Below, piece after piece: positions 429 to 47,699 of a stretch of 64,000 bases of DNA. A program made the translations under genes and the position numbers. Origin of the DNA: Bigelowiella natans CCMP2755 (lineage: Eukaryota > Protista > Cercozoa); assembly GCA_000320545.1 (NCBI GenBank), contig ADNK01000828.1, positions 124,001 to 188,000 of the forward strand, in the 5' to 3' direction. Under the pieces are notes generated by a model. The model did no database searches and was not told the DNA's origin. It saw only the letters and a list, made by a program, of their open reading frames with translations. Position 1 is the stretch's first letter. Each line of letters opens with the position of its first letter.

Positions 429-2553
429 TCATGCATTTGGCTGTATCCATTTTTCAATATCATTGCAATACCTTCCTTCTAGCATGTCTAGAATGAGGGG
501 CTCGGCTTGGGTACGACCCATGAAGTTTGATAAACAATTTACCATGAATTCTTTGACTTTCGAGTTTCCTTCACTCAGTTTCGTTGAGGGTTTTGAGGAA
601 TGCTTGGCTGAGAGCTGTTTCGCTAAATTTTGCAGCGATTCACTACCGAATATATTAAATACCTGTAGGGTCAAATGCCATCGGTTTTAGTCATAAGACT
701 ACGGAATGGGTTTTTGGTCTTTCCATTGTAACATACCATCTCCTCTAAGTTTCGTCGAACCGTTAAAAGATGACGTTGATCTAGAGGTAGCTTTAAAGTG
801 TCAAGCGATGCCTATAATGAAGAGACTAACCGTCAGGGCGGCAGTAGTAAAGAGGATTATATTTGCATCATTCTGGTCGCTGCTACCTACTACCTTTTGT
901 TGCTTTGACCAGAAAGTAATAGAAATAGCAAGGGGATCAAGGTTGCGAAGATGGTGCCACCAGCCAACAGGAAGATACAGTAAATCTCCTGACAGTGGAG
1001 ATATAGGGAAGGAAGTTAGAACTTAATCATTAGTAGATAGTTTGCTCATACCTGGTTGGAGAACAGCATAATGTGGCCGTGCATGCCGATACAGCGGAAA
1101 CCGGTGAAGGTCTGGATTGTCAGGATTTACCATGGCCTTTGTTTGAACAAGTTTTTGTCATCGATACTACTGTCCGATCCACTCTCAAATGTTCTTCACC
1201 TGTCTATCACAGGCATGATTGCACGGAAAAGCGTACATTCCTTGCCAATCACCAGGAGGCCATAAATAGACTTCCTTGCGTCCGCGCATTTGTGCAAACA
1301 TGTTCTCCTGCTCGTCGTAATGGGCTGGGGTTGTGGCTCCTTGCATACCAATGAGTAGGATATTTCTATCTGGAGTTCCCCATCCATACTTCTGCACTAT
1401 TCTCAGCAACCAATTCCAATTCCAAGATGCAAATTCAGATGAAAACTCCGAATGTCCTGATAAACTATGAAAGAATTTCAAGCAGCACCATTGAATCAAG
1501 ACGTTGCAATGCATATATGATAATAACTAACATCCCTTAGAAACTAACCTTTCTTGTAAGTATAACAAACCGCTTCTTCCCTTTTTGTTTCCATCTTCAT
1601 CTATTGCTGGGCCCTCTTTCGTTGTTTCCTGGACACGTTGTAAAAACTCGCTAATGGTTATGCTCTTTTCAGATGTCGGTGCCTGAAGGAACAGTCCAGC
1701 TTTTTATGATAGATATATAATTGACACATTGGAAGAAGTACAACCTTAAAGACATAAGGCCCCGTATGCTGCTCTTTTTTCCAATACCTGTTGATATTCA
1801 AGAGCAGCAATAGCAGTAGCATCTACCTTAGATGACAGTATATCTGGTGCGACATTTGTTGCACACACAATACCTAAAGTATTGGCTAGGAGACTCATAC
1901 ACTGTGACTTTCTTTGCCGCAAGCATACTTTGAATATGGCCCGGAGTCCATTTCGATTCCTTCGACTCTCCTACATGTTACATTTTTTCTAATCTATTTG
2001 GGTACACGACATATACGAATGTGTATACGCACGTATCCATTATGCTGTTCTATTGCATGCTGACCGGTGCTGCCCCCCCTCTTAATCAGTTGCGATCCAC
2101 GGATGACGATAGGAAGGTGAGCCTCCAGAAACTGATCCAATAGCGGAGACCCCCAGGGAACAACGCAGACAGGTCTATTGAGAATGTGACGAACACATCA
2201 GAAATTATGTTAACACGGATGAGCCAACGTAGGCTCGAGACGTCATTTAAGAAGTTAGTTTACCTTATGTTTCTGTAGGAGTCAAGGGTATCATCGCTTG
2301 GACGAGTTTCAAGTGACTCTTTATAACGTTTTGGATTTTTCTTGACGAAATCCTCAGTGACTTGAGGATGCATGAGCACCGGGTAGGTAAGCATTGCGTG
2401 GTTGCGCCATCCTAGATATTCCTCTATGGCTTCCAAAATGATATTCGTGGTAGCAGCAGCACTTTCCTTCCTTTCATCTGCTCCGTGGAGAAACAATGAC
2501 GAAATGGTATTTCTCGCTACCGTAGTGTTCCTGGTCCTCATCCTGATGCTCAT
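429..2553 (-). CDS. HIF1AN: JmjC 2-oxoglutarate/Fe(II) hydroxylase, Factor-inhibiting-HIF (FIH/HIF1AN)-like, multi-exon
   Basis: Spliced exons read NILLIGMQGATTPAHYDEQENMFAQMRGRKEVYLWPP...PCNHACDRQ / AMVNPDNPDLHRFP...VLQPG / DLLYLPVGWWHHLRN...ISITFW / ...LLTVRRNLEEM / ...LILDMLEGRY. This is colinear with FIH, including the HxD...H iron triad and the C-terminal dimerisation helices. The start is uncertain (2553, or a further exon up to about 2870). Confidence 0.9.
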
Positions 2554-2982: not shown

Positions 2983-3574
2983 ATGGAGGCTGTGGCCGTC
3001 GTTGTTGGAGCTGGTGCAGGTGCCACAGTTAGGTCGCAACATTACTCCGATGTAAGCCATCAATAAAGACTGATACTTACTTTTTTTTTCTAATTTTGGT
3101 TGAATAAGACATTTCGCCTCTCAATTTGCGAAGCGGAAGCATTCAGACCTGGGGCCAGTGGCCATCACTGCTGTCAATACTGCTGGTATTTGTCAGATGC
3201 TTCGATAGATTTCATCCAGTAATTATGTGTGGCAACCTTTATGATATAGGTTCGTTTATTCTAGGGGCTGTAGTTGGAACTCCAAATCTGTCAACGAGAT
3301 CCCGGTGCTTGCTTGAACTAAACTACCTGCCATGCTGGCTGACTTACTCTGCCCATTTATGTATAGAGTATGCCTTGGGACGGGATTTTGTGGTGCTCTT
3401 ACTACTTTCAGCACCTACTCTATGGATGTTGTGACTATGATTGAAGCCAAGGAGATCGGAAGGGCGTTGCGATATATCGGCATGAATCACGCTGGCGGTT
3501 TAGGAGGTGCAACCCTAGGTTACCTACTGGCAAAACAATTGGCGCGGAGCACACTGGTGAAAAAGAAATGTTAG
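2983..3574 (+). CDS. crcB: Fluc/CrcB fluoride export channel, single domain, 4 exons
   Basis: MEAVAVVVGAGAGATVR / HFAS...AITAVNTAG / SFILGAVVG...SR / VCLGTGFCGALTTFSTYSMD...; GFCGALTTFST is the Fluc signature. The ATG directly follows a possible acceptor (ctag), so an upstream exon is possible. Confidence 0.9.
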
Positions 3575-18075: not shown

Positions 18076-19033
18076 TTAAGCAGCGACTTTGAAAAGCTTG
18101 TCGTCCATTGCCTTAATGTCTTTCATTTCAGAGTCATCCAACACCTTAGCCATAATTTCCCAGCAGAAGCCTTCAACTTCCTGTGCCATGCTCTCAAGTA
18201 CAACAGTGCGGTCCTTCTCAATTCCACTAAGGGCAGCTTCAATCTCCTTGTTAACCTTATCCTTGCTAGCAGCCATAGCAGCTTCGCATTCTGCGTTCAG
18301 AGCGGCAAGCTTTTCGTTTCTCTCACTGTTGATAGTTGCGCGCATATTGTTGATAGATTTTTCAGCGAAGGAAATAATCTGATCGCACTCCTCTAAGTTG
18401 CCACTCGCAGACTCGAGGTTAGCCTTCAAGATACCGTTACGCTGATCAATAACTTTGCTGAGAGGTCCAAACCAGAGCTTATCAAGGAAAAAACTCAAGA
18501 GTACGATCTCGGTTGCCATGTACGGCAAGGTAAGATCGAAATCGAAGAGCAATCCACCCGCAGCGAGAGCAGGGAAAGTGTTTGCAAGGTTGCAAACACC
18601 CACAGTAGCAGCAGTGGCCAGTGGAGCCCCAACGCGAAGACGGATTTTGTTAGGCGCAAGGTCAACTAAATATAAAATTTGTTAGTACAATTTCATCACA
18701 GAAATTCTCAAGAAATTCCACAGTACCTGGACGAGGGCGGACAGCAATTTGCTTTTCGTTGGAGTGTGCAAAGGCAGAAACGGATCGAGATGAAGGTGCA
18801 ATTCTCATATTTACAGGAGCAGCCATCCTTGATCGCGAGACGATACCGGTGCTAACATTACCTATCGAATTTTTAAAATTGTTCATCACCCAACCCCATG
18901 AATTTATTTACACTTAACAGTAATCGACTTTCTTTTCAAATCTACCTTGAGTGTTTACACTGAAGAGGACAAGGCCCACAAGGACACAAGCCAGTACTAC
19001 GTTAAGAACGGCAGAGGCGTGGACGGCCTTCAT
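18076..19033 (-). CDS. atpG: Plastid ATP synthase CF0 subunit b' (II) precursor, 3 exons
   Basis: Mature region GGLLFDFDLTLPYMATEIVLLSFFLDKLWFGPLSKVIDQRNGILK. Exon 1 (19033-18946) encodes the signal peptide MKAVHASAVLNVVLACVLVGLVLF. Exon 2 is a Ser/Arg-rich transit peptide. Exon 3 starts with a thylakoid signal ending PALA. Confidence 0.95.
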
Positions 19034-19743: not shown

Positions 19744-20707
19744 ATGGACGTCAATCTTGAACCTTCGTTCTTCTCTCGCAACACTGGCTTTGATGACGAG
19801 GAAGATGAGAAGAATGCAAAAGATTCAGAGTGCCCAAAACCAACTGTTATTTTCACTGTACGATACTCGCGAATTCTTTTTCATTTTATGAATGTAATCT
19901 GACAATATGTGTACTACGCAGTGGTGTCCATCAGTCAAAGCAAATCTGAAGAACGGATTGTTCAATACCGAGCTTCTTGTGATCGGCTGTAATGATATGT
20001 GCTCGTTAGCTCTTCGACGTGCTGTAGAATGTGGGGAAAATAAGATGGACTTGCTAGGAAGTTTAGTGATGGAGGAAACTCCTATTAGGACTATGAGCGC
20101 AGCGAATCCCACTATTGCTCAGCAAACCTGTATGTTTTACTACCTACCAAGTTCCAAACTTACAATAGCTATGGTGGGGGGAGGTTTACCTGCATCAAGT
20201 GCGTTCAACGTTACGGAGACCATATTTAAGCATTTCGATTGTAAAAATGTTGTCCTCTTGGACACGACGATGACTGCAGCAGCAGAAGCTGATGAAGAGA
20301 AACTGTCATCCCTGGCATGCATAGAGACTAGTGAAGCGTCCTCAAGCAAAGGGCTGGAGATTATAGATAGTAAATATTTATCACCACCATCCATGATTCG
20401 TGGCCTCGGAGCTGCTCTCATGATCCATTGTGAGATAAAGAGTATTCCAGCAAGGCTATACACTGCTTTTGAGGATATGCATAGGACCCTAGACACATGT
20501 CTTGTCTTTGATAGATTACTATCGAGCTCATCCATTGCACTAATTCCCAAAAACGTATTGTCGATGGAACTCTCAAATAAAAGATTAGAAATCAAAGATG
20601 TTGCTGAAAAAGCAGGCCTTGACTGGGAAAGTCCTCTACAGGCACAGCAGCTAGTATATGCGGAAGGGGGAACTAATGTACCACCTCCCGATGGGATTTA
20701 CATTTGA
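19744..20707 (+). CDS. PSMG1: Proteasome assembly chaperone 1 (PAC1), 2 exons
   Basis: Acidic N-terminus (SRNTGFDDEEDE), motif YLSPPSMIRGLGAALMIHCEIKSIPARLY, and a C-terminal HbYX motif (-GIYI). Phase-0 intron at about 19858-19921. Confidence 0.8.
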
Positions 20708-33297: not shown

Positions 33298-33822
33298 TAA
33301 GGTACGTCATCGCTGCTGATCATTGATTCCAAAGCGATGACCACTGTCCCGATGGGATCATTCGCAGTGAATGTATCCTAATGAGGAAAAAAAGCCCAGG
33401 GGGGGACACACCAGGAGAGGTGAGAACAGCAATAAGATAGAAAGAGGAAGACGATGACGATTAATACGACAACAACGCAAGGAGTCGAGAGAATGGAAGA
33501 ATAATTATACAATTACCTTGTCAAAAACTGTGAGTCTGAGCGGGTTTTCGTAGATTAAGGATTCATCCATGAGCTTAAAACGAAAGCTTTGGTTCCAAAC
33601 TGGATCGAGGCTATTGTAACAAATTCTTGTCTCGCGTTTCAAATTTTGATTGCTTCCATCCCCAAGGCGTATAAGAACGTATGCATCAGTCGTATTTCGG
33701 GTTGAGTCCATGACAGGAAGATTACGAGCGCCATAAACTCGCACCTAACAGATGATGATAAATTAGGGCGCGCTGTCGTGAAATGAATTAAATGTTTCTC
33801 CTACCATGACAAGAGCCGCCAT
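21553..33822 (-). CDS. C2CD5: C2 domain-containing protein 5 (C2CD5)-like, about 12.3 kb, microsatellite-filled introns
   Basis: MAALVM/VRVYGARNLPVMD...TDAYV...LDPVWNQSFRF...VFDK/DTFTANDPIG.../GWFPVYDTLK; GFVDELIVSADPE; GANSVIGYRFDIDFE/GSHGVIARGYGTA; VSENILFIQYDLYRQL; LGLNAAFGL; final exons ARAQVFAKGGNALLSY / YSIMSLSGDAV. All are in C2CD5 order. Confidence 0.9.
22480..33300. repeat. Dense microsatellite field: (TA)n, (TG)n, (GA)n, (GAT)n, (TAG)n, (GAG)n, (GAA)n, (CAA)n
   Basis: Dozens of perfect arrays of about 25-40 bp in C2CD5 introns and exons. Similar fields occur at 10850-14030, 41380-44470 and 48600-64000. Confidence 0.95.
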
Positions 33823-34060
33823 TACGGCTCGACTGTGTAATCGGAGAGTATGGCCAAGCTTGTGTGTGCGTGCTTATGTGTTCTTCCAAGAGTCTATGCG
33901 AGCACGAGAACGAATGTTGATCAGAGAGTGTATCTAGAGAAATTACACCTGTCTATAGAAGTATAATATCGGTAAAACATCTACTTTTTTTTTCCTATTA
34001 AACTCATATTACTTCTTCGCGGTGGTAGTGGTTAATGGTTGTTTATAGCAGTGAGGAGCT

Positions 34061-34842
34061 ATCACTGAAACATCTGCACTTTTTGTTCCATTTTGCCAAG
34101 AAGCCTTTGATGCTCCTGACATGCTGCATGCCAATGTCATCATTTTTCATTGCTCGTCGCACGTTTCTTTGTTGAGTGTTTGTTTGTTTGTTCGTGCAGA
34201 GCAGCAGGGATGTGACATCAAGTGTTCAATGCTCAAATCACAATTGGTGCCTGCGCATGCGGCGACCATGTCGATGCAAAGTTCAGTTCAATCAACTCAC
34301 TTGAAATCGTCACAAAATGGCAGTGCACAACTGCAGGGCTCTCGTTCATTGTCTTTTCACACACTTTGCTCCTCAGTTTTGTTCCTGGGTTCTGCACGCA
34401 CCAGCGCACGCTGCAACGTGCCGTCCTGGCGTGGACTGGCTGCACGTCAGCATGGCCTGATTGCCCGATTTCCAAAGTTGTTCTGCGAAAACGTGCAACG
34501 TCGTGGTCACCTCACGTTCGTTGACTTCCGTGCGACCCTCGTCACGAAGTCCAGAAGTGCTGGAAAACGTGACACATGCAAGCTGCTTTGTGTGATCGTG
34601 AGAGAGTGGCACCAGCAGCAGTGAAGCTCTGATGCCACACGTTCGACAACGACCGCCGCAGCTAGGCAGGCCAGCTAGCCAGTCTAGCAGTGCGAGCACA
34701 GCGAAGTGAACGACAGAAAAGTGCGCAATGAACGATGGAATGCGGCTGTGCGCACGCCGCTGGAACCAGCTGCGTTCGTGCAATGACAACTAGCTAGCTA
34801 GGTGCTGCACACTGGCACAATGCGCAACGTGAATGGCAATGT
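34061..34842. other. TpA-depleted intergenic island 1
   Basis: No TA dinucleotide between the TA at 34060-61 and the TA at 34663-64. The 6 TAs from there to 34842 are all inside CTAG. Confidence 0.95.
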
Positions 34843-35184
34843 GTATGAGTGTGACGCATGCCTCTTTGAATGACAAAGGTTCGTCACTGCTAGTGCGGTA
34901 CCTAACACAGGCATGGGTTAATGTGCAAGCCTAGCAATCGATGAAATAGATAGCACATCTGACATCATGTCTGCTACTCGATTGTGCTTTGTTTGAATGC
35001 GATCATATGATTTAGCTCGACAAAACTAATCAATAGTTATGGCATGTTTTCGTTGTGATGAAGTAATGAGCGTAAGATGAGGCTGAAAGATAGTGTGCTT
35101 TATCATGCTAATCAAATCTACTACTAGATTAGATCCCTGGGGGGTTGCGCATGATGGATAGCAGTTGACTTATCATCTGCATCT

Positions 35185-37987
35185 TTAATCTTTCTTATCA
35201 CCGTTTAGGGACAGAGGGTTGCCTTTTACATCTAAGTCAGGGAGTGATTGGTGCGAATTCAAATTCCGCTCCCAGATTCTCATCTCTTGTAAAGTGTTCG
35301 AAATGGACGGGAACAATGTTTTTTTCGACAAAGCAGCGGCTAACAGAAGCTGCTCTGCTTGGGCATCGGGAGCATTCAGAACGATAACATCTGGTGGGAG
35401 TCCAGATGCAGCTCCATGCCGGCTTCGAGCACGCAATCTTCCATCCCCATCTCCATCTTCAGGTTCATCGAGTGTTTGTAATATGACACGGCAGTCAGGC
35501 ATTTCTCCGTTGATATGTATGGCAACTTCCTTCGCAACACGGTAATTCAAGAACACGACGAGAACTTTTACCTCGTCAGTAATCATTTTGCTGACATACT
35601 CAAGCAATTTTGTGACTTCACCGCTATTTAGGTCGCCGCTTTTATCTTTACCGTCTTCTTCGTCTTGTTGTCCTGTGGTAGATACTCTCTTGCTAGCATC
35701 GAGAAACATGCATTCCCATCCGACCTGTCCAAGTCCCTTCATGGCCCTTCGCACCATGCTGGTTTCTTTCATAGCTAAGACAACTACTTTCCCTCTTCTC
35801 CGTGGCGGTTGTCTGCCAGCTTCTGCCAATGTCCAAAGAGCATGTTTAAACAAAGGAGGGCCCACCACCTGGTTCAAGACTACCATTGCCACGATCAGTG
35901 TTGCAAAATCCGCTCCCCATTCAGGAAATTGGCCGTGGACTTTTTTGGCCAACCCTAGGGCCACACCAGCCTGTGTGACGTACGCATACCAAGCCATCTT
36001 ATTGTGATGGTTTGGTTCATTTGCAATCCACCCTCCAAGAAATGCGCCGCATATCAGGCTTCCAATTCTCACCACGAAAAACAGCATGGAGATGCCGAAG
36101 GTATTCCCAAATGAATCAAGTCCGAGAGAAGCACCAACCAGGGTAAAGAACATCACATACATCACCTGCGCGGTTCTATCCAGAATCTCATGGAATTGTT
36201 TGCTGTAAGGTGTGTGGTTTGCTATCGTGTATCCTGCCACCATAGCTATGATAAGAGCGTCCAAGAGGTCATCATCGTAGTGATCTAGAATGAAAACTAG
36301 AAGTCCAATGGCAAGAAGTATGACAACTTGTGCATGGTGGATGTATGCAGTGTATTTGCACTGCCCTAACCTAGAAGGCCACCACCAGAGGGCATAAGGG
36401 CAGATAAATTTGCCCATAAAAGCCCCTAACAAGCTCGAGAGGATCAACCGTGCTATAGACTTTCCAAATATCTCGGTTGAGTTCTTGCCATTGTCGAATT
36501 GACTGCTTGCAATTAGATTGTTCACTGCAAACATGAAAATAACCAGAACATCCATGACGCATGTGACCGCCATTGTTAGCACTGTAAAGGGGCCTGAGGC
36601 CCTTAAGTCATCAATAATAGCGATAGCTGAAGACGGAGACCTTGCGCAAGCCAGAGTACCAACAAGTATAGCTACCCCTCCCTGCTGTGATGCTGTGAGA
36701 TCTTTTGTGAATTCAAGATCCGGGGAGATCAACACCATGACGAGAGTCACCATCGAAAATGTAAACAGCACCAGACAGAGAGTCACCGTGATAATGCTCC
36801 GCCCTAAATCAAATCAATCAAGGTTTGACGATGAGATTGCTTCCATTTTACTCAATTGTTTGGCACCTTCATATGTACAACCGAGAGAGATGATTACAAC
36901 TAAAAGCTAGCTACCTCTGAAAATATATGACTTAAATTGCTATTTTTTGGTCCTTTCGAACGTTTACCTCCTACTATGGGTTTGGAGCCCGCAGCAAAAG
37001 CAATATATGCCAGAGAAACCTTATAAAGCGTGGAATTATCACGTCTTTAATCATGATAAAGTAACGATGATATTGATGGTGACAATGAAAATTTCTAGAC
37101 CATTTTGCTTATAATTCTCCCGTTAACTAGCTCTCAATGTCGTCGTCCTCAATTACTTCCATTGACAACTAATCACCCGTACCCGCCCAAAAACCCACCC
37201 AGCACCTTGTCAATAACATCTAAGTTCCTAATCTCGTCCTCCGGAATAATGCCGAGACAGTATCCTCCCGCAAGCACACCTTGCACCAATCAGACAAATT
37301 TTGAATGAGAGAGAAACTAGCTTCGAGGACTTCCCCCTTCCTCCCTCCCTCCCTATTTCAACAACTAAATGGTGTTAATACCAACGCCAATATACGCTGT
37401 GATCTTGGGCAATCCAACCTGTGAGCGCAGTATGGTATATCATCGGTTGGTGCTGGTGCTGGTGGTGTTTCACATTAGCTTCGATATAAATTTAGAATAA
37501 TACAATTTCGAATAACTGGTTAAATCATTTGATTGGTGGCACCTTTGGGGCGACATTGCCCATGACCCATGACGCAATAGCAACAATGGCGTACCTTAGT
37601 TGTTGTTGTACATCTTTTGTCATAACAATTGCTAAATGGATAGTAAATCAAACCGCCTACCCTAGTATCAGGCGAATGCTAGGATTTCCGAACACATTAA
37701 TATTTTCGCAGGTATCTCCGTCAAATCCAACAGGGCATTGGCAGGTCATTGAATCCGTGCAGAAACCATCGTTCTTGCATTCATTCTCGCAAATGGCTGT
37801 TTACCAACATATTTCAGATTTCAAAACAGATAGGTTAGATTGTCGTTAGAACATACGGGTTTCGCAATTGGATCCGGAATATCCCGAGTTGCAGACGCAC
37901 GTTGAATTTTGCAGACTTCCGTGTCCATTACAATCGACTACAGAAAAAGAAGAACACACAGATGAAGGAAGCAAAGGGGCGGATTCA

Positions 37988-38023
<36 letters not shown>

Positions 38024-38024
38024 T

Positions 38025-38067
<43 letters not shown>

Positions 38068-38241
38068 CGCGCGCATGCGTGTACATTTATGTATATACTA
38101 TCAAGAAGTGCAGTCATGCGCTCTCTGCTCCGCAATTGATCATCAGCTACCTGCGTAGACTGGGTTCGCTGTGAATAATAACACGGAAAGTGGGAACATA
38201 AAGTGCCACGGAGTAGTAGACGATGTGTCCACTAACCTCAT
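35185..38241 (-). CDS. Cation/H+ antiporter (CPA, Na_H_Exchanger-type) with signal peptide and two N-terminal EGF-like domains
   Basis: MRLVD...FPLSVLLFTANPVYA / VDCNGHGSLQNSTCVCNSGYSGSNCET / PICENECKNDGFCTDSMTCQCPVGFDGDTCE, then VGLPKITAYIGVG/VLAG, VSLAYIAFAAGS, ARSPSSAIAII, TCVMDV, FFTLVGASL and TQAGVALGLA, followed by a soluble C-terminal domain. Confidence 0.88.
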
Positions 38242-38859
38242 GAGAGAAGATGAAGGAACCTTTAACATAAATAATGCTCGAGAGTCATTGCCGCAGACAA
38301 ACGATGCCCTAACAGAGCAGCCAACAACTGCCTGATACCCAATTCATACATCGCAGCAAAGGAGGACACCATTTCGGCTTCGATTGGCACGTACCCGAAA
38401 CTCCGGTTATTTATGTCGCTTGACTAGTAAACTTGGAGAAGTAGTCTTCCAGCTACACAGATCCCGGCGGCGGCGAAATGGGGAGGGCGGGTTGAGGGAG
38501 AGAGCACCGGAATTACAAGAATAGAGTTGTCCTTTTTAAGACCTAAATATTAAGGATAAATGCTGTCGCTCTCGCTAAAAATGCAACACGTAAAGGTGAA
38601 TTTTCCTCAGATCAGCTTGCACGCTCAACATAAAAAGAAGTCAAAGGAGAAAATTCTATGAGATATTTTGGACCTTGTCTTAACCAATCTCCCCCTATTT
38701 TGCCTGTGTTTTTCATCAAGCGACAAGGAAGGAAGGGCAACGATGTGACGTGCGAGCACTCCTGGCCAAAATCGGAGGACAATGAAACTGGGAATGGAGG
38801 AGTGGCCAAATTGCCATTCTTGATTCCTTTTTGTTTCACTAGTTAGTTCTCACTAGCTG

Positions 38860-40045
38860 CCAAAGTCAGTTCGAGGCACAGTTTTCAGTCCTCACTGAAG
38901 CCAGTTCGAGGCACTGCACTTCGCACACTGGAAGTGTCTTGTCACACTGCTTTGGAAGTGCAGTTTTTCATCATTGTTCTCATTGTTCTCGTGGATGACG
39001 AGTTGGCATGTCTGACCTTTCGAATCAACCTCAGAACCACTTCATGCATTCATTCATTCATGGAAGCAACCCTCAATTTTCACAATGGTCTCCCTCCAAT
39101 GGAAACACTTCTTTCTTTTTCCTTGTTGATTGAGGAGAAACGAAGTGGATGAGTTGGCACATCGTCCGCGGCCAATGACCCTTCGTTTCGCAGTTGCACC
39201 GTTGGAATGACTTCGTTCATTCATTCATCTAGTCATTGCGGCTGACGTCGGCCAGGTGGTGTTCCAGTGGTGCCTGGTCTACTGGCGACACCATGGTCAG
39301 TTCAGAGTTGGGTGCTTCAATTCTCTGGCTGGTGCGCACGTGTCTCGCGTGAGAAACTGGCACTCACAAGGATGCAAAAAAAAGTGAAATACTCGCGATG
39401 ATGTTTGTCACAGTGAGTGTCACTGCACGTTGGGCTTGTTTCCTGAGTGGTGCTCACAAGTGCAGTCCAGCAGTCCAGCAGTGCGTGACTGCACACGCGT
39501 GCGTTCCACGCGTGCCAGCCTGCAGCCTGCTGCGCTGGCCTGTTGGCCTGTCAGCCTGTGTCATCTGTCAGCTTCCCTGGCTAGCTAGCTGCTCAACACG
39601 TGCATCATTCTGCAGAAGTCATGCCACAGATCATTGGCATTCCAATTGTGCGCTGTCATGGAGCATGCGCCATGACATGCAGCTGTGCGGGACGCCTCAC
39701 TCAGGCAGTTGGCATGGAAATGCGTCTTTTTCGTGGTGCTAGCTTGGCTAGTTGGTCTAGAGGGTGGCGTGGTGGCATTTTTTTTCTTTTTTCACCACCA
39801 CGTGGTAGCAGGAAAGTGCATGCCGCATGACGCAACGTGTGCACACTTGCTTGCGAGTTGAAATGACATAGTCGCAGTTTTGGAGTTGTGCAAATGTGCA
39901 CGCACATGTGCAAGTGCATCTGTGCACGTTCTTGCTTTGTCTCTGTTGAATGCTCCTAACTTCAAAGTGAACAAGACATTGTCCACATGCATGCTGACGA
40001 AACAGACAAAGAACATGCGCACAGTTTTTCACATCTTTGATCAAA
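38860..40045. other. TpA-depleted intergenic island 2
   Basis: About 11 TA in about 1190 bp, 6 of them in CTAG; 38860-39229 has none. Confidence 0.93.
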
Positions 40046-43000
40046 TTAGAGCACTAAACGCGGAAGGCTTGCAGCGTTCAACCCGCATGAATCTGCTGCT
40101 GGTACTTTTTCGATGACCCAAGTTCAATGTAACTATATCCTTCTGGGACAACTTCAGGACAAAACTCCATGCTGATTGCTTCCTGCCCACCGTATGTATC
40201 TTCAAGACTGGACATTTTTTGCATTCTTTGTGGTGGAAGCGCATGAACGGCAACAGCAAATTTTGGGCAAGCGCTTCGCTTCCACACCCAATTCTTGGGC
40301 TCATGGTGAGAGAGGAGAAAAGTGTTTCTTGCCGCGTAAGAAAAATCTCTGAAGTAATGATGGAAAAGTCACATATATTATACGATAGTTTAGATAGAAA
40401 AGTATCGCTATTGGAAGAAAAGGAAGACATTTCTCGAGACCAGACGAGATAATCGCCAGCATGTAGAAATGGAAACAAAAAATTTAAACCAAGGAGGAGG
40501 CACTAAAATTGCCTGGAGTAAAGCTACATATTACATACGTACCTCGTCACATCTAAAGAGTTTTCCATTATCGTGAGAGGTGTGATATTATGTTTTTGTA
40601 ATATGATGGCAGTGTTAACGTCCTCGAGAGGAAACACAAGATCCTAGTATTGAAAGAAAAGAAGGAATGGGAAGAGAAAAATGAGAGAACTCTTGTGTTT
40701 AATAGAGAGTACATCAATGTTATAACATCCATCACCCGTGCTTGCCTTCAGGTACCTTTCTGCCTATTTTCCTTTAATGCTCTCTACATATAAATGCAAC
40801 GAACGCATCGGCACCTCCCCTCCCCTGTTTCCATTTCTCTCTAACCACACATCTATCTAACCTGAGGAAGGTTGGAATCGAACTCCATGGCCAGAAACCT
40901 TGTCGCGTTCTGGGATAAGATATAAAAAGGACCCTCTGCGTAGTCCGGAAAGTGCCTAGAAATCATTTTCATTTTACATGTGTAAATTGATTAAATAGGA
41001 TGCACTGTGAGGCCGCGAGTTACAACGACGGGTACCTTGGCTTGAACATTCGGAAAGGTACAGCCCACTTATGATGATGCTTTCGTTTCACAATCGCCTG
41101 ATGTTTGGATAATCGATATTTCCATAATTACAATTTATATGAGTGGTAGCAATGAGCAGCAACAATGTTAATCAGAAGCAGAGGCGAGAGATAACACGCA
41201 ACTGAAGCAAAATATTTATCATCTTTGTCCTTTTTTTTTTAATTCTGCTACCACAACCAGCACTAATATCACCATCATCACCTTATGTCTTAGGCGTCCG
41301 ATGTAGAAATCACCTTCAAGACTATTCTCAATGGCAAAGCATTTCCTCCTCCTTCTACTCCTTCGCATCCTCCTGCTGCTGCTACTGCTGTCGTGGGTAC
41401 TGAGATGATGATGGCGACGATGTTGATGATGATGATGATAATGATGGAAGTGTGGACTTTGATGCCGTTCGACCTCCTCCTGTTCTCCTTCTTCCTTGCC
41501 CCCATTACTTTTTCCTTTTATCTCTTTGCTCTTGGTAACACTGGTGCTTCTGCTGCTGCTGCTGCTACTGCTGTGGTTATCATCGATAATCTGCCGCTTC
41601 TGTCGCTGATGCTGCTGCTGCTGCTGCATAGGGTCGTCATAGTTATATTCCCTACAATCAGACTCATTATTATCTAAACTTTGTTGTAGTCCCCGAATCT
41701 TTTGTACAAGTTCCGAAAATTTACTCGTAGAAATGTATACGTCGTCATCTACTTTGACAAACAACCACTGGTCCTCCTCCTCACCAGTATCATGGTGTTG
41801 CTGTCGATTTTCATTACTTCCCTTGATCATGTTGGTGTCAGTGTTCGCACTGGTAAAGATGGAACTGCTTTCATCATCATCTTGAGCATCATGATGATCA
41901 TGGCTGTCGAATATCTCTTTCTCTGTCCACCATGCTGCTCCCAATGTCTGTGTAGATAGACGGTGGTGGTGAAGGTCGTAGTCACGATTTGATGATAGTG
42001 ATAATAATTATAATGACGAGGAGGTATATTGCCAGGAAAAAGAAGAGGATATGAACATATATCGTGGTTATAAGAAAGGTAACTGAAATGGAGAATATAT
42101 ACGAGAAATATGAAAATCAGTATCATTCTACTACAATCACCCCCTACCTTTCGTGACAAGTTATAGTAGCCATCTCCAATGGGGAGTAGTATCAGATCGC
42201 CCTCCCGCTCCTTTTCTGAGATAAGCTCTGATAAGCCAGAACAGGTGGGGGGAGAAAAGGCAACAGAGTGGAAGAATGAGCAATGAAAGAGAAGCACATG
42301 ATTGACTAACACCCAGCAAGAACTGACGACGAAAGAGTGGGAGGTTAAGTATTGTAATATACTGTATCCAAACATTAATGTGTCTATTACTGTCATGTAA
42401 TTCTGGGTTATTCCCTAATCCTCCGACAAAAAATTTGTAGACAGCCCCTGTGGTAGTGATAATAACCGTAATTGATAGTGAGGTGGTGTCGAACCAACAC
42501 ATATTTGCAATTTTGCTACTTCGCATTCCAAAGAACGAAAAATTGAAAATGCAGCTAAAATACAACCTCGTTATCATTTGCAAGCGGCGAGAAAAGTGAT
42601 AACATTATGCATTGAGTCATCGTCGTCATGTGATCTGTTTTGTTGTATCATCCCTTTATTAACTACCTCTTGCAACAACCCTAGATATCCATGAGTTTCT
42701 CAAAGCCTCTCTCTGATCCTCGTGCTGCGGACTTGTCATCACGGCAAAGAATACCTTCTTTAACGAGAATTTGGTTGCTGCTGCAGCACCACCATTACCA
42801 CCAGTCGCAGTGGTGTTAAGGTAGTTGTGCCCCGCTTCTCCCCGACCCCCAACTCTTTCGTTTTGATCATGTTCTGCGGAAGAAGTTGGGGTGGAAATGT
42901 TTGTTTTTCCTTCGTATGAAAGGTGTAAAGGACGAGGAGGAGGCGGAGGAGGAGGATCACTGCTGTTATTTCTATTGAGCTGTGTGTCCTTCTCGACATC

Positions 43001-44209
43001 TTCCGAAGGATAAAAATTATCATCTCCCTCATCCACTTCCTTCTCTTCCTTGTCGTTGCGATGATGATACGATAAGCCTCGATCAGAATTATTTTCGTCA
43101 CCAATACTATCGTGATCAAACTCCTTTGCAACACGCTGGAGCTCTAACAGACCTTCATTATCGAAGGGGGAGGAGGAAAATGCTGACCCACTATTATTAT
43201 TACTGATGCTGCTGTCGTGAGTATAATCAGCTTCTTTCCGTTGTCCTTGCTGCACAGACGATAGCTTGCTACCCTCCTTCTCTTCATCTTCCTCCTTGTC
43301 GTCCTTAACATAATAACGATGATGATACTCCTGGTGGCTCATTCCATCATGATCTCCATCCTTCGTTCTTAAGCTGCTGCTGCTGCTGCTACTGATGGCC
43401 GTGGTGTTACTGGTATCACTGCTTGTTGTTGTTGTTGAGGGTTCCAAACTCATCATAGTAGTGCTACTGCTGCTATGGTTTTGACTGTTTTCATTATTAT
43501 CGTAACTGTGCACCTCTCCCTCCTCTATTTCCTCGTTATACACCCTCATCGTATCAGTATCTTTGTCGTTGTGTTCCCGCATCGTATTAGTATCTTCGTA
43601 GTAATCGGCCTCAACGAATGACATCTTTCCTCCTCCCCCTTGTATCGAATTATGCTCAGAAAATACCTGATCGTAGTATTCTATTCAGGAACTACCCAGT
43701 GCGTACATTTATGTTAGAGGAAAAAGGCAGGAACATCGTTCTCGCGATGATTTTCATCCCAGTAACAAAGAATAAAAGTCATTCTAAGACATACAATCAA
43801 TACTTCAGAAGTAAAATTTTTAGGTACCGTTCCAGCAAGATCACGTGCAGCGTCGTGAAGTAGCAGCTCACCTATCCAATCAACAACACAACCGATTCAG
43901 CAACCTTGGATCGATCAACGGCAGTACAATGAAAACGAATGATAATGGATTTCATATGGACGTATTGTCATTGAAAATATTGAAGATGCCTTTTAACGCG
44001 GAACAACATCGCAGAGCTAAAAAGTATGCTGACAGGATGACGACATGCACTTCTGCTTTTGTGGCATATGTTATCTGACAACCCAAGAATTGTGTACTAC
44101 TGCTACTGCAGCATTATCAAAGATCAGCACTACCTTCAAAGGCCTCCACATGGACTGTCAGTGTAGAAAGTATAACTAGCAAGTTAATATAGAAGAAGGC
44201 TGTTGTCAT
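40041..44209 (-). CDS. Glycosyltransferase family 31 (beta-1,3-galactosyltransferase-like) with long low-complexity stem
   Basis: Signal/anchor MTTAFFYINLLVILSTLTVHVEA; VFFAVMTSPQHEDQREALRNSW; YKFFVG; LISEKEREGDLILLPIGDGYYNLSRK; FVKVDDDVYI (DxD motif); FYIG; FPDYAEGPFYILS; FPLEDVNTAI. Confidence 0.88.
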
Positions 44210-45088: not shown

Positions 45089-45748
45089 ATGGTGCCTTAC
45101 GAGCGGCTTATTAGCCTTCTCCTCCTCCTCCTCAGAGCTAGTACCACACATGCTATTAACATTACTGGTACTGGAGCTTCCTTTATGGACTGTGGTTCTG
45201 CGCCGTTGTGTGGTGAGACAAGCTTTTTACAAGAAGCTGAAAGCTGTAAACTTTCCTCTGAAACTCATTTGAATTATTTAGGCGTAATGGTTCTGGAGAC
45301 GGGTTACGGTATAGTCAACAATGCGTGCTAAAAAACAAAAACAACAACAATATAGTGAATTTTTACTGCATTATAGGCCCATCAGCGTATCACCACGATG
45401 TACCATGCGTGCATGGAATCTGGCCTCAAGTTGGAAGCTATGGCTCTTCCCAATGCATCGCTCCTTCTGACACCTCTGATCCAACTTCCATGGCTAGCTG
45501 TTATGTACGTTTATCTTCGTTGTGTGTTTGTGTAAAGTAGTACAATATGGAGGAGAGCAACAACTGATTCGTCGTTTTCCACTTAAAGGATGATTTGAGC
45601 TTCATGACTCACGAATGGGAGAAGCATGGAACTTGTGCTGGTGTCAAGGACTCCGACGATTTTTTCAGCCAAGTTTGCTCACTATCAGCGCAGCCTCTCT
45701 CGGTGATGCAGCCTCTGAGGGCCCAGGTAGAAATTGATGATAAAGCAA

Positions 45749-45789
<41 letters not shown>

Positions 45790-46705
45790 TATATTTGAGT
45801 ATGTATTTGTGCGGTGTTGTTAGATCATTCTCCTCGTCCTTATATTGTTCAATTTATTATTAGAGTCAAAGCTTGGCCGACATGGCTAGTGCTTTAAAGA
45901 ATGGTGGATATCCTGTTTACTACGTTGACGACGTTGACTCTCAGATCTACATATCTGTCTGTGCGTCCAACGACGGGCAGTGGAAGATCGCTGATGTCTC
46001 GCAGTTCTCGACTGTGTGCAAGGGTGGTGTAATTTAAACGACGGTGACTAATCGATTGTGTTAGCAGCAGCCGCCATGTAGTATTAGCATATATCTGTTT
46101 GAGTAGTAGTGATGATAATGTGTGGATGATGGTATTATTATTAATCACAGGTACTGCACCTGCACCAGGACCGTCTCCAGGCCCTTCTCCCTCCCCTGGT
46201 ACTACTACTAGTACTAGTAGTAATGATAGTAATAGTATTATGATCAGTTGCGATGCTATAAATAAATTGATGATAATGCATGTATTTCCTGATGGATGCT
46301 CTCCTCCTCCCCCCCCCTCCAGGTGGAAGTAAGTGCATCGCAGACCAGCACGGCCCAGCTTGTTCTTCTGACTCTGATTGCACGCAATATGACTCCTGCA
46401 TCCGCTGTGCCGGCTCTGGTTATTGTACTTGTGTTGATGAGACCACGGGACAATGTGCTGCTGCTGCTGCTACCTCTGCTGCTCAACTATCATCTGCTAC
46501 CACTCGCACTAGTAAATCTGCTTTGGCAAATGGTACTACTACGGGTATGAAACATCATCATCGTGGTGGCGGACTAGGCGGTGCACCGTACATGAATTGT
46601 GGATCTTCATCGTTATGCGGTACTACAAACTAGTATTGGGTTATCATAACAACCTCGACGACAATCGTCGCTGCTAGTAGTGCTGTTTACTTGCTGGCAG
46701 GGATA

Positions 46706-46740
<35 letters not shown>

Positions 46741-47699
46741 CCACTAAAACGACATACGCGTAATTTTACATCGACGACTAGTTAGATGTTGCACGACTAT
46801 TCGCTGCTGCTGCCGCTGCTGCTACTACTACTAGAATAGTAATAATCATCGATGATCACACACTTAAATTGTTGATGGGATGTAGGTGTGTTGGTGCTGG
46901 AAAGTGGCTACGGTAAACAACAACAACAACTACTACTACTACTACTACTACTACTGCTAATGATCTCTTTGTATACATAACAATGCACACTATTTTCTTT
47001 TTTAACTCCTCCTTCCGAAGCAACGGTAAAAGGAATGGTGATTGTTATCATTATCATCTTTAAACCTCCTCATCCATGCAGGCCCACCAGACTATCACCA
47101 CGATGTACCATGCGTGCATGGAATCTGGCCTCAAGTTGGAAGCTATGGCTCTTCCCAATGCATCGCTCCTTCTGACACCTCTGATCCAACTTCCATGGCT
47201 AGCTGTTATGTACGTTTATCTTCGTTGTGTGTTTGTGTAAAGTAGTACAATATGGAGGAGAGCAACAACTGATTCGTCGTTTTCCACTTAAAGGATGATT
47301 TGGGCTTCATGACTCACGAATGGGAGAAGCATGGAACTTGTGCTGGTGTCAAGGACTCCGACGATTTTTTCAGCCAAGTTTGCTCACTATCAGCGCAGCC
47401 TCTCTCGGTGATGCAGCCTCTGAAGGCCCAGGTAGAAATTGATGATAAAGCAAGCATGTATAGATATATATTTGAGTATGTATTTGTACGGTGTTGTTAG
47501 ATCATTCTCCTCGTCCTTATATTGTTCAATTTATTGTTAGAGTCAAAGCTTGGCCGACATGGCTAGTGCTTTAAAGAATGGTGGATATCCTGTTTACTAC
47601 GTTGACGACGTTGACTCTCAGATCTACATATCTGTCTGTGCGTCCAACGACGGGCAGTGGAAGATCGCTGATGTCTCGCAGTTCTCGACGAAGTGCTAG
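45089..47699 (+). CDS. Secreted ribonuclease T2 family protein with two tandem catalytic domains
   Basis: Signal peptide, then CAS I (VHGIWP) and CAS II (FMTHEWEKHGTC), each present twice. The domains are joined by a Pro-rich linker and a small Cys-rich module. Stop TAG at 47697-47699. Confidence 0.92.
45388..47689 (+). repeat. Near-identical direct repeat, 45388-46012 and 47093-47689, including introns
   Basis: About 600 bp with 5 substitutions seen and a net 28-bp length difference in (TA)n tracts. Confidence 0.95.

Follow-up and report, generated by a model that had tools for sequence, protein, structure and literature searches.

A segment of 1.35 kb between two Bigelowiella natans genes is almost free of the dinucleotide TpA, and is probably a scar left by a mutator, reported from this species, that changes A to G at TpA only. 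The segment (38697-40046, called island 2) lies in a stretch of 64,000 nucleotides, which was analysed at its full length and is referred to as the window. Direct evidence of conversion is given by a repeat copy at the left end of the island, in which TA has been converted to CA or TG. Island 2 adds a new locus to a process known from B. natans. Added here are the polarity of the change on a short non-viral repeat, the exemption of CTAG, and a possible collateral editing of host DNA.

The process was reported by Mettrop et al. (bioRxiv 10.64898/2026.01.13.699255) as hypermutation of integrated viral DNA in B. natans, from T/A to C/G and on TpA only. According to this preprint, 231 de novo mutations occurred in two integrated viral regions, with every GC-ward one on TpA, the mutation rate of the viral regions being about 1000-fold the nuclear rate, and B. 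natans has 124 TpA-depleted clusters, each 3 kb or longer. An ADAT2-like adenine deaminase is the predicted candidate mutator. In the candidate chemistry, adenine would become inosine and be read as G at the next replication, and an edit on the other strand would change TA to CA. The preprint uses cut-offs per 1-kb window of rho(TpA) at most 0.43 together with rho(CpA+TpG) at least 1.52. Two of the 64 one-kb windows fall within these values and correspond to island 2 and a second island, island 1; the one at 39001-40000 has a rho(TA) of 0.19 and a rho(CA+TG) of 1.74. Each island gives one such window on the grid used, which is short of the at least three consecutive windows that define a cluster in the preprint. 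A literature search on TpA hypermutation in algae gave nothing relevant beyond the preprint.

Island 2 carries 14 TA, eight of them in CTAG (at 38840, 38854, 39229, 39581, 39585, 39739, 39748 and 39757), and has a rho(TA) of 0.17 and a rho(CA+TG) of 1.67. The original prediction had counted about 11 TA in 38860-40045, 6 of them in CTAG, and a recount gave exactly these numbers where about 72 TA are expected. For 38856-40045 the expectation from 2000 base-preserving shuffles has a mean of 72 (SD 6.5, minimum 52). This part has a rho(TA) of 0.15 and a rho(CA/TG) of 1.74, and the lowest rho(TA) among windows of the same length outside both islands is 0.49. A two-state segmentation on non-CTAG TA found exactly two segments in the 64 kb, 34061-34898 and 38697-40046. 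The depletion is thus as predicted; the left limit is not, as the segmentation starts about 160 nt further left. The borders of the islands are sharp. The (TTCA)3 tracts described earlier are present at 39049 and 39216, and so is the cagtccag repeat; their derivation from (TTTA)n and TAG-rich repeats is a proposal.

Conversion of TA was simulated on background DNA with CTAG spared. This reproduced the rho(CA) of 1.75 and raised the GC content from 0.41 to 0.48 (0.51 in the island), and left the excess of CG words and the deficit of CC in the islands unexplained. In both islands CC/GG is low (rho 0.5-0.62), CCCC and CCGG are absent, and CG words (ACGT, CACG, GCGC) occur at 3-5 times the simulated level. 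This bias may come from a weaker CpA-to-CpG editing or from the ancestral sequence. An Rfam search over 33500-40600 gave nothing reaching the gathering score.

The features of the window used below are the following, of which the last four are ordinary host genes:

34061..34898, no strand: island 1, 8 TA, 7 in CTAG (segmentation and counts)
34941..38553, minus strand: downstream host gene with EGF-like exons, its last exon long and hydrophobic (spliced mRNA)
38697..38778, no strand: TA-free flank left of the repeat, 82 nt, 0 TA
38779..38990, plus strand: copy of a dispersed repeat's 3'-terminal module, 81-84% identical to its relatives L004 and L006
38959..39625, no strand: middle of island 2, identical low-depth contigs in two of the three contig runs (X15, X17)
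39924..40077, minus strand: 3' UTR of the upstream gene (RNA contigs)
39924..44169, minus strand: upstream host gene, resembling a galactosyltransferase (Pfam Galactosyl_T, weak, E 0.003 and under the cut-off)
1188-1526, minus strand: cupin/JmjC-like gene
3317-3571, plus strand: CrcB fluoride channel
18079-18681, minus strand: nucleus-encoded plastid AtpG
19898-20704, plus strand: proteasome chaperone PAC1

The AtpG exon at 18079-18666 is identical (196/196) to Bigna1/47572 of JGI, which is B. natans nuclear DNA. RNA evidence came from four RNA runs, three of them contig runs. Around the islands there are three consecutive spliced minus-strand genes: the galactosyltransferase-like gene, the membrane protein with EGF exons, and a C2-domain gene (from 33742). 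The spliced frame of the upstream gene stops at 40078-40080; island 2 lies between a point about 30 nt behind this stop codon and one about 140 nt short of the next RNA 5' end. The last exon of the downstream gene (35188-36813, minus strand) is a hydrophobic exon of 542 codons without a Pfam match and looks transporter-like by eye. An association of the islands with untranscribed DNA had been raised. It does not apply to island 2, where identical low-depth contigs of spliced-RNA runs cover 38959-39625 and 39924-40348. The few raw reads on 38959-39625 are on the plus strand.

The original prediction had overlooked a dispersed repeat at the left end of island 2, where 212 nt belong to a dispersed, transcribed and non-coding family. 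In the RNA runs the bin 38605-39011 has a summed contig depth, which does not equal copy number, of 614 and 1944, compared with 19 and 70 on the adjoining exon, and up to 29 and 40 contigs differ at one site of the bin. This depth together with dozens of differing contigs indicates a dispersed transcribed repeat. Raw short reads on the same bin (run X21) amount to 87 on the plus strand against 0.9 on the minus strand, while raw reads at the 3' ends of the neighbouring minus-strand genes are on the minus strand. Many RNAs seem to have a member of the family near their 3' end, in plus sense.

A pattern scan of metagenomes returned 12 loci, of which only L004 and L006 are true relatives of the repeat; the other ten were rejected, having no alignment beyond the pattern. 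A longer relative is found in Bigna1/138586, a B. natans gene model that is probably spurious. The module ends in a short tandem tail and has a 7-nt terminal inverted repeat and no recognisable protein. Its class is either a candidate retroelement-like 3' end or a candidate MITE-like module. Many transcribed copies with a common 3' end and a short tandem tail are as in a non-autonomous non-LTR retroelement (SINE/LINE 3' end); no target-site duplication was seen by eye around 38779-38990, and only two candidate proteins for a retroelement partner were found, neither with a Pfam family. The fold of the L004 module is stable (z -3.15). L004, P0024 and P0025 have common sequence upstream of the module, although MITE ends should delimit the element. 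Searches for known families were negative for Pfam (18 read-through frames taken from the two islands and L004, none reaching the cut-off of a family) and for Rfam (L004 and L006), and an atlas search with P0024 was uninformative (top score 0.76).

L004 (1-1192), which matches Bigna1/138586, contains internal direct repeats of 172 nt and 110 nt; at 967 nt from its module part of the module occurs once more, so that L004 is possibly a tandem unit. In L006 (1-1565) the algal repeat meets, at an A run, AT-rich sequence that by eye resembles marine phage genes, and L006 is likely an assembly or library chimera.

The direction of change was read from the alignment of the island copy with these two relatives. 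Compared with L004, 8 of the 10 aligned TA are converted, 6 to CA and 2 to TG, while other A/T bases changed to G/C in 5/95 cases and CA/TG changed to TA in 0/28 (Fisher p 2e-7); one ancestral TA is counted twice here because the copy has an internal duplication, and two TA sites at the edges of gaps or of the alignment are omitted, which by eye would bring the count to 9/12. The changes, 6 T-to-C and 2 A-to-G, are on both strands of one copy. Compared with L006, 9/12 TA are converted, other A/T bases changed to G/C in 5/94 cases and CA/TG to TA in 0/25; as L004 and L006 are about 95% alike, the two comparisons are not independent. The relatives retain 9 (L004) and 11 (L006) TA in 170 nt and the island copy 3 in 212 nt. 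Over its whole length L004 has a rho(TA) of 0.59. The internal duplication, 42 nt within 38846-38915, is missing from both relatives, and two TAs kept by its left unit are converted in its right unit. The list of RNA paralogs alone shows no significant enrichment of C>T/G>A differences at CA/TG (8/14, p 0.2), which is expected if many paralogs have been edited themselves.

The remaining TA are concentrated in CTAG. For both islands together, sites of the form C-(TA/CA/TG)-G have TA in 15/43 cases compared with 39% outside (p 0.74), and all other contexts have kept it at 7/441 sites. The latter divide into 5/144 sites with TAG on one strand and 2/297 with TAG on neither. Depletion is seen in all nine other flank classes, including TTAA with 0/23 where 5.9 are expected. 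Log-likelihoods of the context models are -87.2 for a flat model, -63.4 for a CTAG-only model and -61.7 for a graded one, the graded model being ahead of CTAG-only by just about 1.6 log units. In the repeat there are five unambiguous converted sites with TAG on one strand (38867, 38886, 38897, 38902 and 38961; two of them go back to a single ancestral site by duplication), and by eye all five were edited at the A that does not precede G.

CTAG is strongly but not absolutely spared, since a conversion is seen at 38790 (CTGG here, CTAG in both L004 and L006) and, in paralogs, at 38840, where 88/177 raw reads have CCAG. Slow editing of an A before G, a context that CTAG has on both strands, is slightly favoured as the cause; the other candidate is a mark or protein that protects CTAG itself. 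Two strict rules were rejected: that an A before G is never edited, by composition (80 DCAG against 59 DTGG, 80/139, p 0.003), and that an A after CT is never edited (p 2e-9). The DCAG/DTGG composition is compatible with no strand preference (p 0.13). That cytosine deamination has regenerated CTAG is disfavoured, as CCAG/CTGG is enriched and not depleted and the CTAG at 38840 is ancestral. The main text of the preprint (10.64898/2026.01.13.699255) has no mention of CTAG, TAG, context or trinucleotide, literature searching gave nothing that links Bigelowiella with CTAG, and a B. natans methylome was found neither in the text of PMC5890265 nor by literature search. A clustering of CTAG toward the upstream gene, proposed for both islands, holds for island 1, where the relative position averages 0.83 (p 0.007 after collapsing clusters); in island 2, with the CTAG at 38840 and 38854 taken into account, it is absent (0.48-0.53, p 0.37-0.55).

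Island 1 served as the comparison locus. Its core has no paralog and no RNA cover in the RNA contigs, and a repeat as possible seed was not identified. That the two islands look dissimilar by eye agrees with a best BLAST cross-match of 23 nt at 83% (E about 3), and local alignments between the islands, and of the islands with L004, are within compositional noise. A conversion-blind alignment was dropped, as it gave equal scores in both orientations (352, 334) and had an unsuitable single-base shuffle as control. An imperfect direct repeat of 33 nt (33967-33999 and 34060-34092) spans the left edge of island 1, and the copy inside has TG where the copy outside has TA. The evidence supports the proposal that the islands have a process in common and not an ancestor: they are non-homologous, the relatives of the repeat keep TAs that are lost here, and the process has been measured in the species.

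The proven repeat covers just 212 of the 1350 nt of island 2. The 82 nt to its left have no TA (p 0.002 at the background rate, which is optimistic because the flank was chosen by the segmentation), and they do not match the upstream sequence of the repeat family significantly, with 73/300 shuffles scoring as well. The upstream gene's 3' UTR has a single TA in the 120 nt of 39924-40043 (p 0.001 at the background rate). The depleted flank and 3' UTR suggest that depletion has spread from the repeat into the host spacer and the 3' UTR. A single chromatin state of H3K9me3 plus H3K27me3 is reported to mark both transposons and repressed genes in B. natans (10.1101/2025.03.17.643675). In the proposed mechanism, insertion of a repeat into the spacer would seed a repressive domain with these marks. 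An adenine deaminase with specificity for TpA would then act throughout the domain, on one strand or the other, and leave little TpA except in CTAG. Editing would halt near the upstream stop codon and the downstream promoter, and host spacer and 3' UTR would have been rewritten too. For this sequence of a repeat-seeded domain, a mutator acting across it and rewritten host DNA, we consider the chances to be even. The same mutator could also have acted without spreading, if the island consists of old foreign DNA, inserted once or several times, in which the upstream gene has come to use a poly(A) site. The sharp borders fit such an origin, C-xx-G and CG words are commoner in the islands than converted host DNA would give, and the preprint (10.64898/2026.01.13.699255) ties TpA-depleted DNA to transposon and viral domains that are mostly unannotated because they are degraded. 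On the other hand, 39012-40046 is without paralogs at 85% in the RNA contigs, and no match was found to the upstream sequence of the repeat, to Pfam or Rfam, to phages (blastn) or to viral contigs (exact degenerate pattern, two scans, 0 hits); these negatives weigh little, as the searches lay outside B. natans genomic DNA. We regard foreign insertion as a possible but less probable origin.

Gene layout might instead steer the mutator to head-to-tail spacers, the repeat having landed there independently. Both islands had been placed in the only two head-to-tail spacers of the window, which the approximate gene map supports for 0-49 kb; a duplication of RNase T2-like sequence may however add a third, with a rho of 1.17. 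Among 11 measured spacers, the two clear tandem ones have a rho(TA) of 0.51 and 0.24 compared with 0.75-1.27 for the other nine, which include two convergent spacers of more than 1.2 kb; this comparison uses the approximate map and excludes two spacers and 49-64 kb. A head-to-tail spacer has neither a shared promoter nor overlapping 3' ends, RNA confirms the three minus-strand genes in a row, and island 1 shows no repeat. The association is suggestive with n=2. However, the spacer limits, and several of the orientations, were taken from a rough coding model in which one of seven training pieces was out of frame, and island 2 is partly transcribed. Steering by layout is rather unlikely. A lesion or modification of thymine at TpA, or an error-prone polymerase, in place of adenine deamination would have the same outcome, and we rate it as unlikely too, if a little less so. 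A-to-G on one strand cannot be separated by sequence from T-to-C on the other, and the deaminase of the preprint (10.64898/2026.01.13.699255) is a predicted candidate only. Almost pure transitions in one dinucleotide nevertheless fit deaminases, and no result here indicates a thymine-modifying enzyme. Finally, as the island is partly repeat and partly transcribed, the repeat could be intrinsically TA-poor, or TA could be selected against in a functional RNA or a chromatin element. The polarity test largely refutes a TA-poor repeat, with numerous TA kept by L004 and L006 and changes that go one way, and the Rfam gathering score is reached nowhere inside island 2, which makes this explanation highly improbable.

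The RNase T2-like duplication (45375-46012 and 47080-47689, plus strand) is direct, 94% identical over 638 columns and near-identical apart from a microsatellite, and represents two genes or one two-domain gene. Two of the few differences between its copies are TA/TG swaps in opposite directions. This recent duplication of about 600 nt keeps its TAs (rho 0.98 and 0.78), so duplication alone is no trigger there, though the copies may be under selection or not yet old enough.

A nearly complete scar gives the sequence fingerprint of the mutator: CTAG is spared, TTAA is not, and TAG is not preferred, which argues against an ADAR-like preference. The blind spot at CTAG could help to identify the enzyme. 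The polarised repeat means that small non-viral repeats are also targeted, and the depleted 3' UTR raises the question of host DNA as collateral. More broadly, and tentatively, the mutator may act beyond foreign DNA, with short repeats seeding the rewriting of entire host spacers and 3' UTRs, thousands of islands of 1 kb, and CTAG shielded by a dedicated and still undescribed DNA mark or binding rule. If so, 1-kb islands would map past heterochromatin, and a mark or binding rule would separate editable from protected adenines.

Fungal repeat-induced point mutation (RIP) makes dinucleotide-specific transitions that are concentrated on repeats, and leaves sharply bounded compositional islands in which TpA is made from CpA. 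Island 2 resembles RIP in its dinucleotide-specific transitions, its linkage to a repeat and its sharp compositional limits. The direction is opposite, as RIP changes C to T and creates TpA, which is lost here. RIP also mutates long near-identical duplications; the recent 600-nt duplication keeps its TAs but may, as said, be young or selected. RIP is named as an analogue in the preprint (10.64898/2026.01.13.699255). Hyper-editing of repeat RNA by ADAR, from A to I, prefers 5'UAG (PMC10661471), and the islands share with it an A-to-G change with a 5' U/T neighbour that is directed at repeats. In contrast to ADAR editing, TAG contexts survive best in the islands, and the changes are fixed in DNA on both strands. 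A hyper-edited retrocopy was rejected as an explanation, since it needs UAG preference and edits on one strand.

The closest system is that of Mettrop et al. Their clusters differ from island 2, which is about 1 kb long, lies between expressed host genes, is partly transcribed and has nearly complete conversion. The mutations measured by them are in viral DNA, whereas any seed of island 2 is a short non-viral repeat, and their NCLDV region is silent, whereas the middle of island 2 is transcribed. Species, dinucleotide and the products on both strands are the same.
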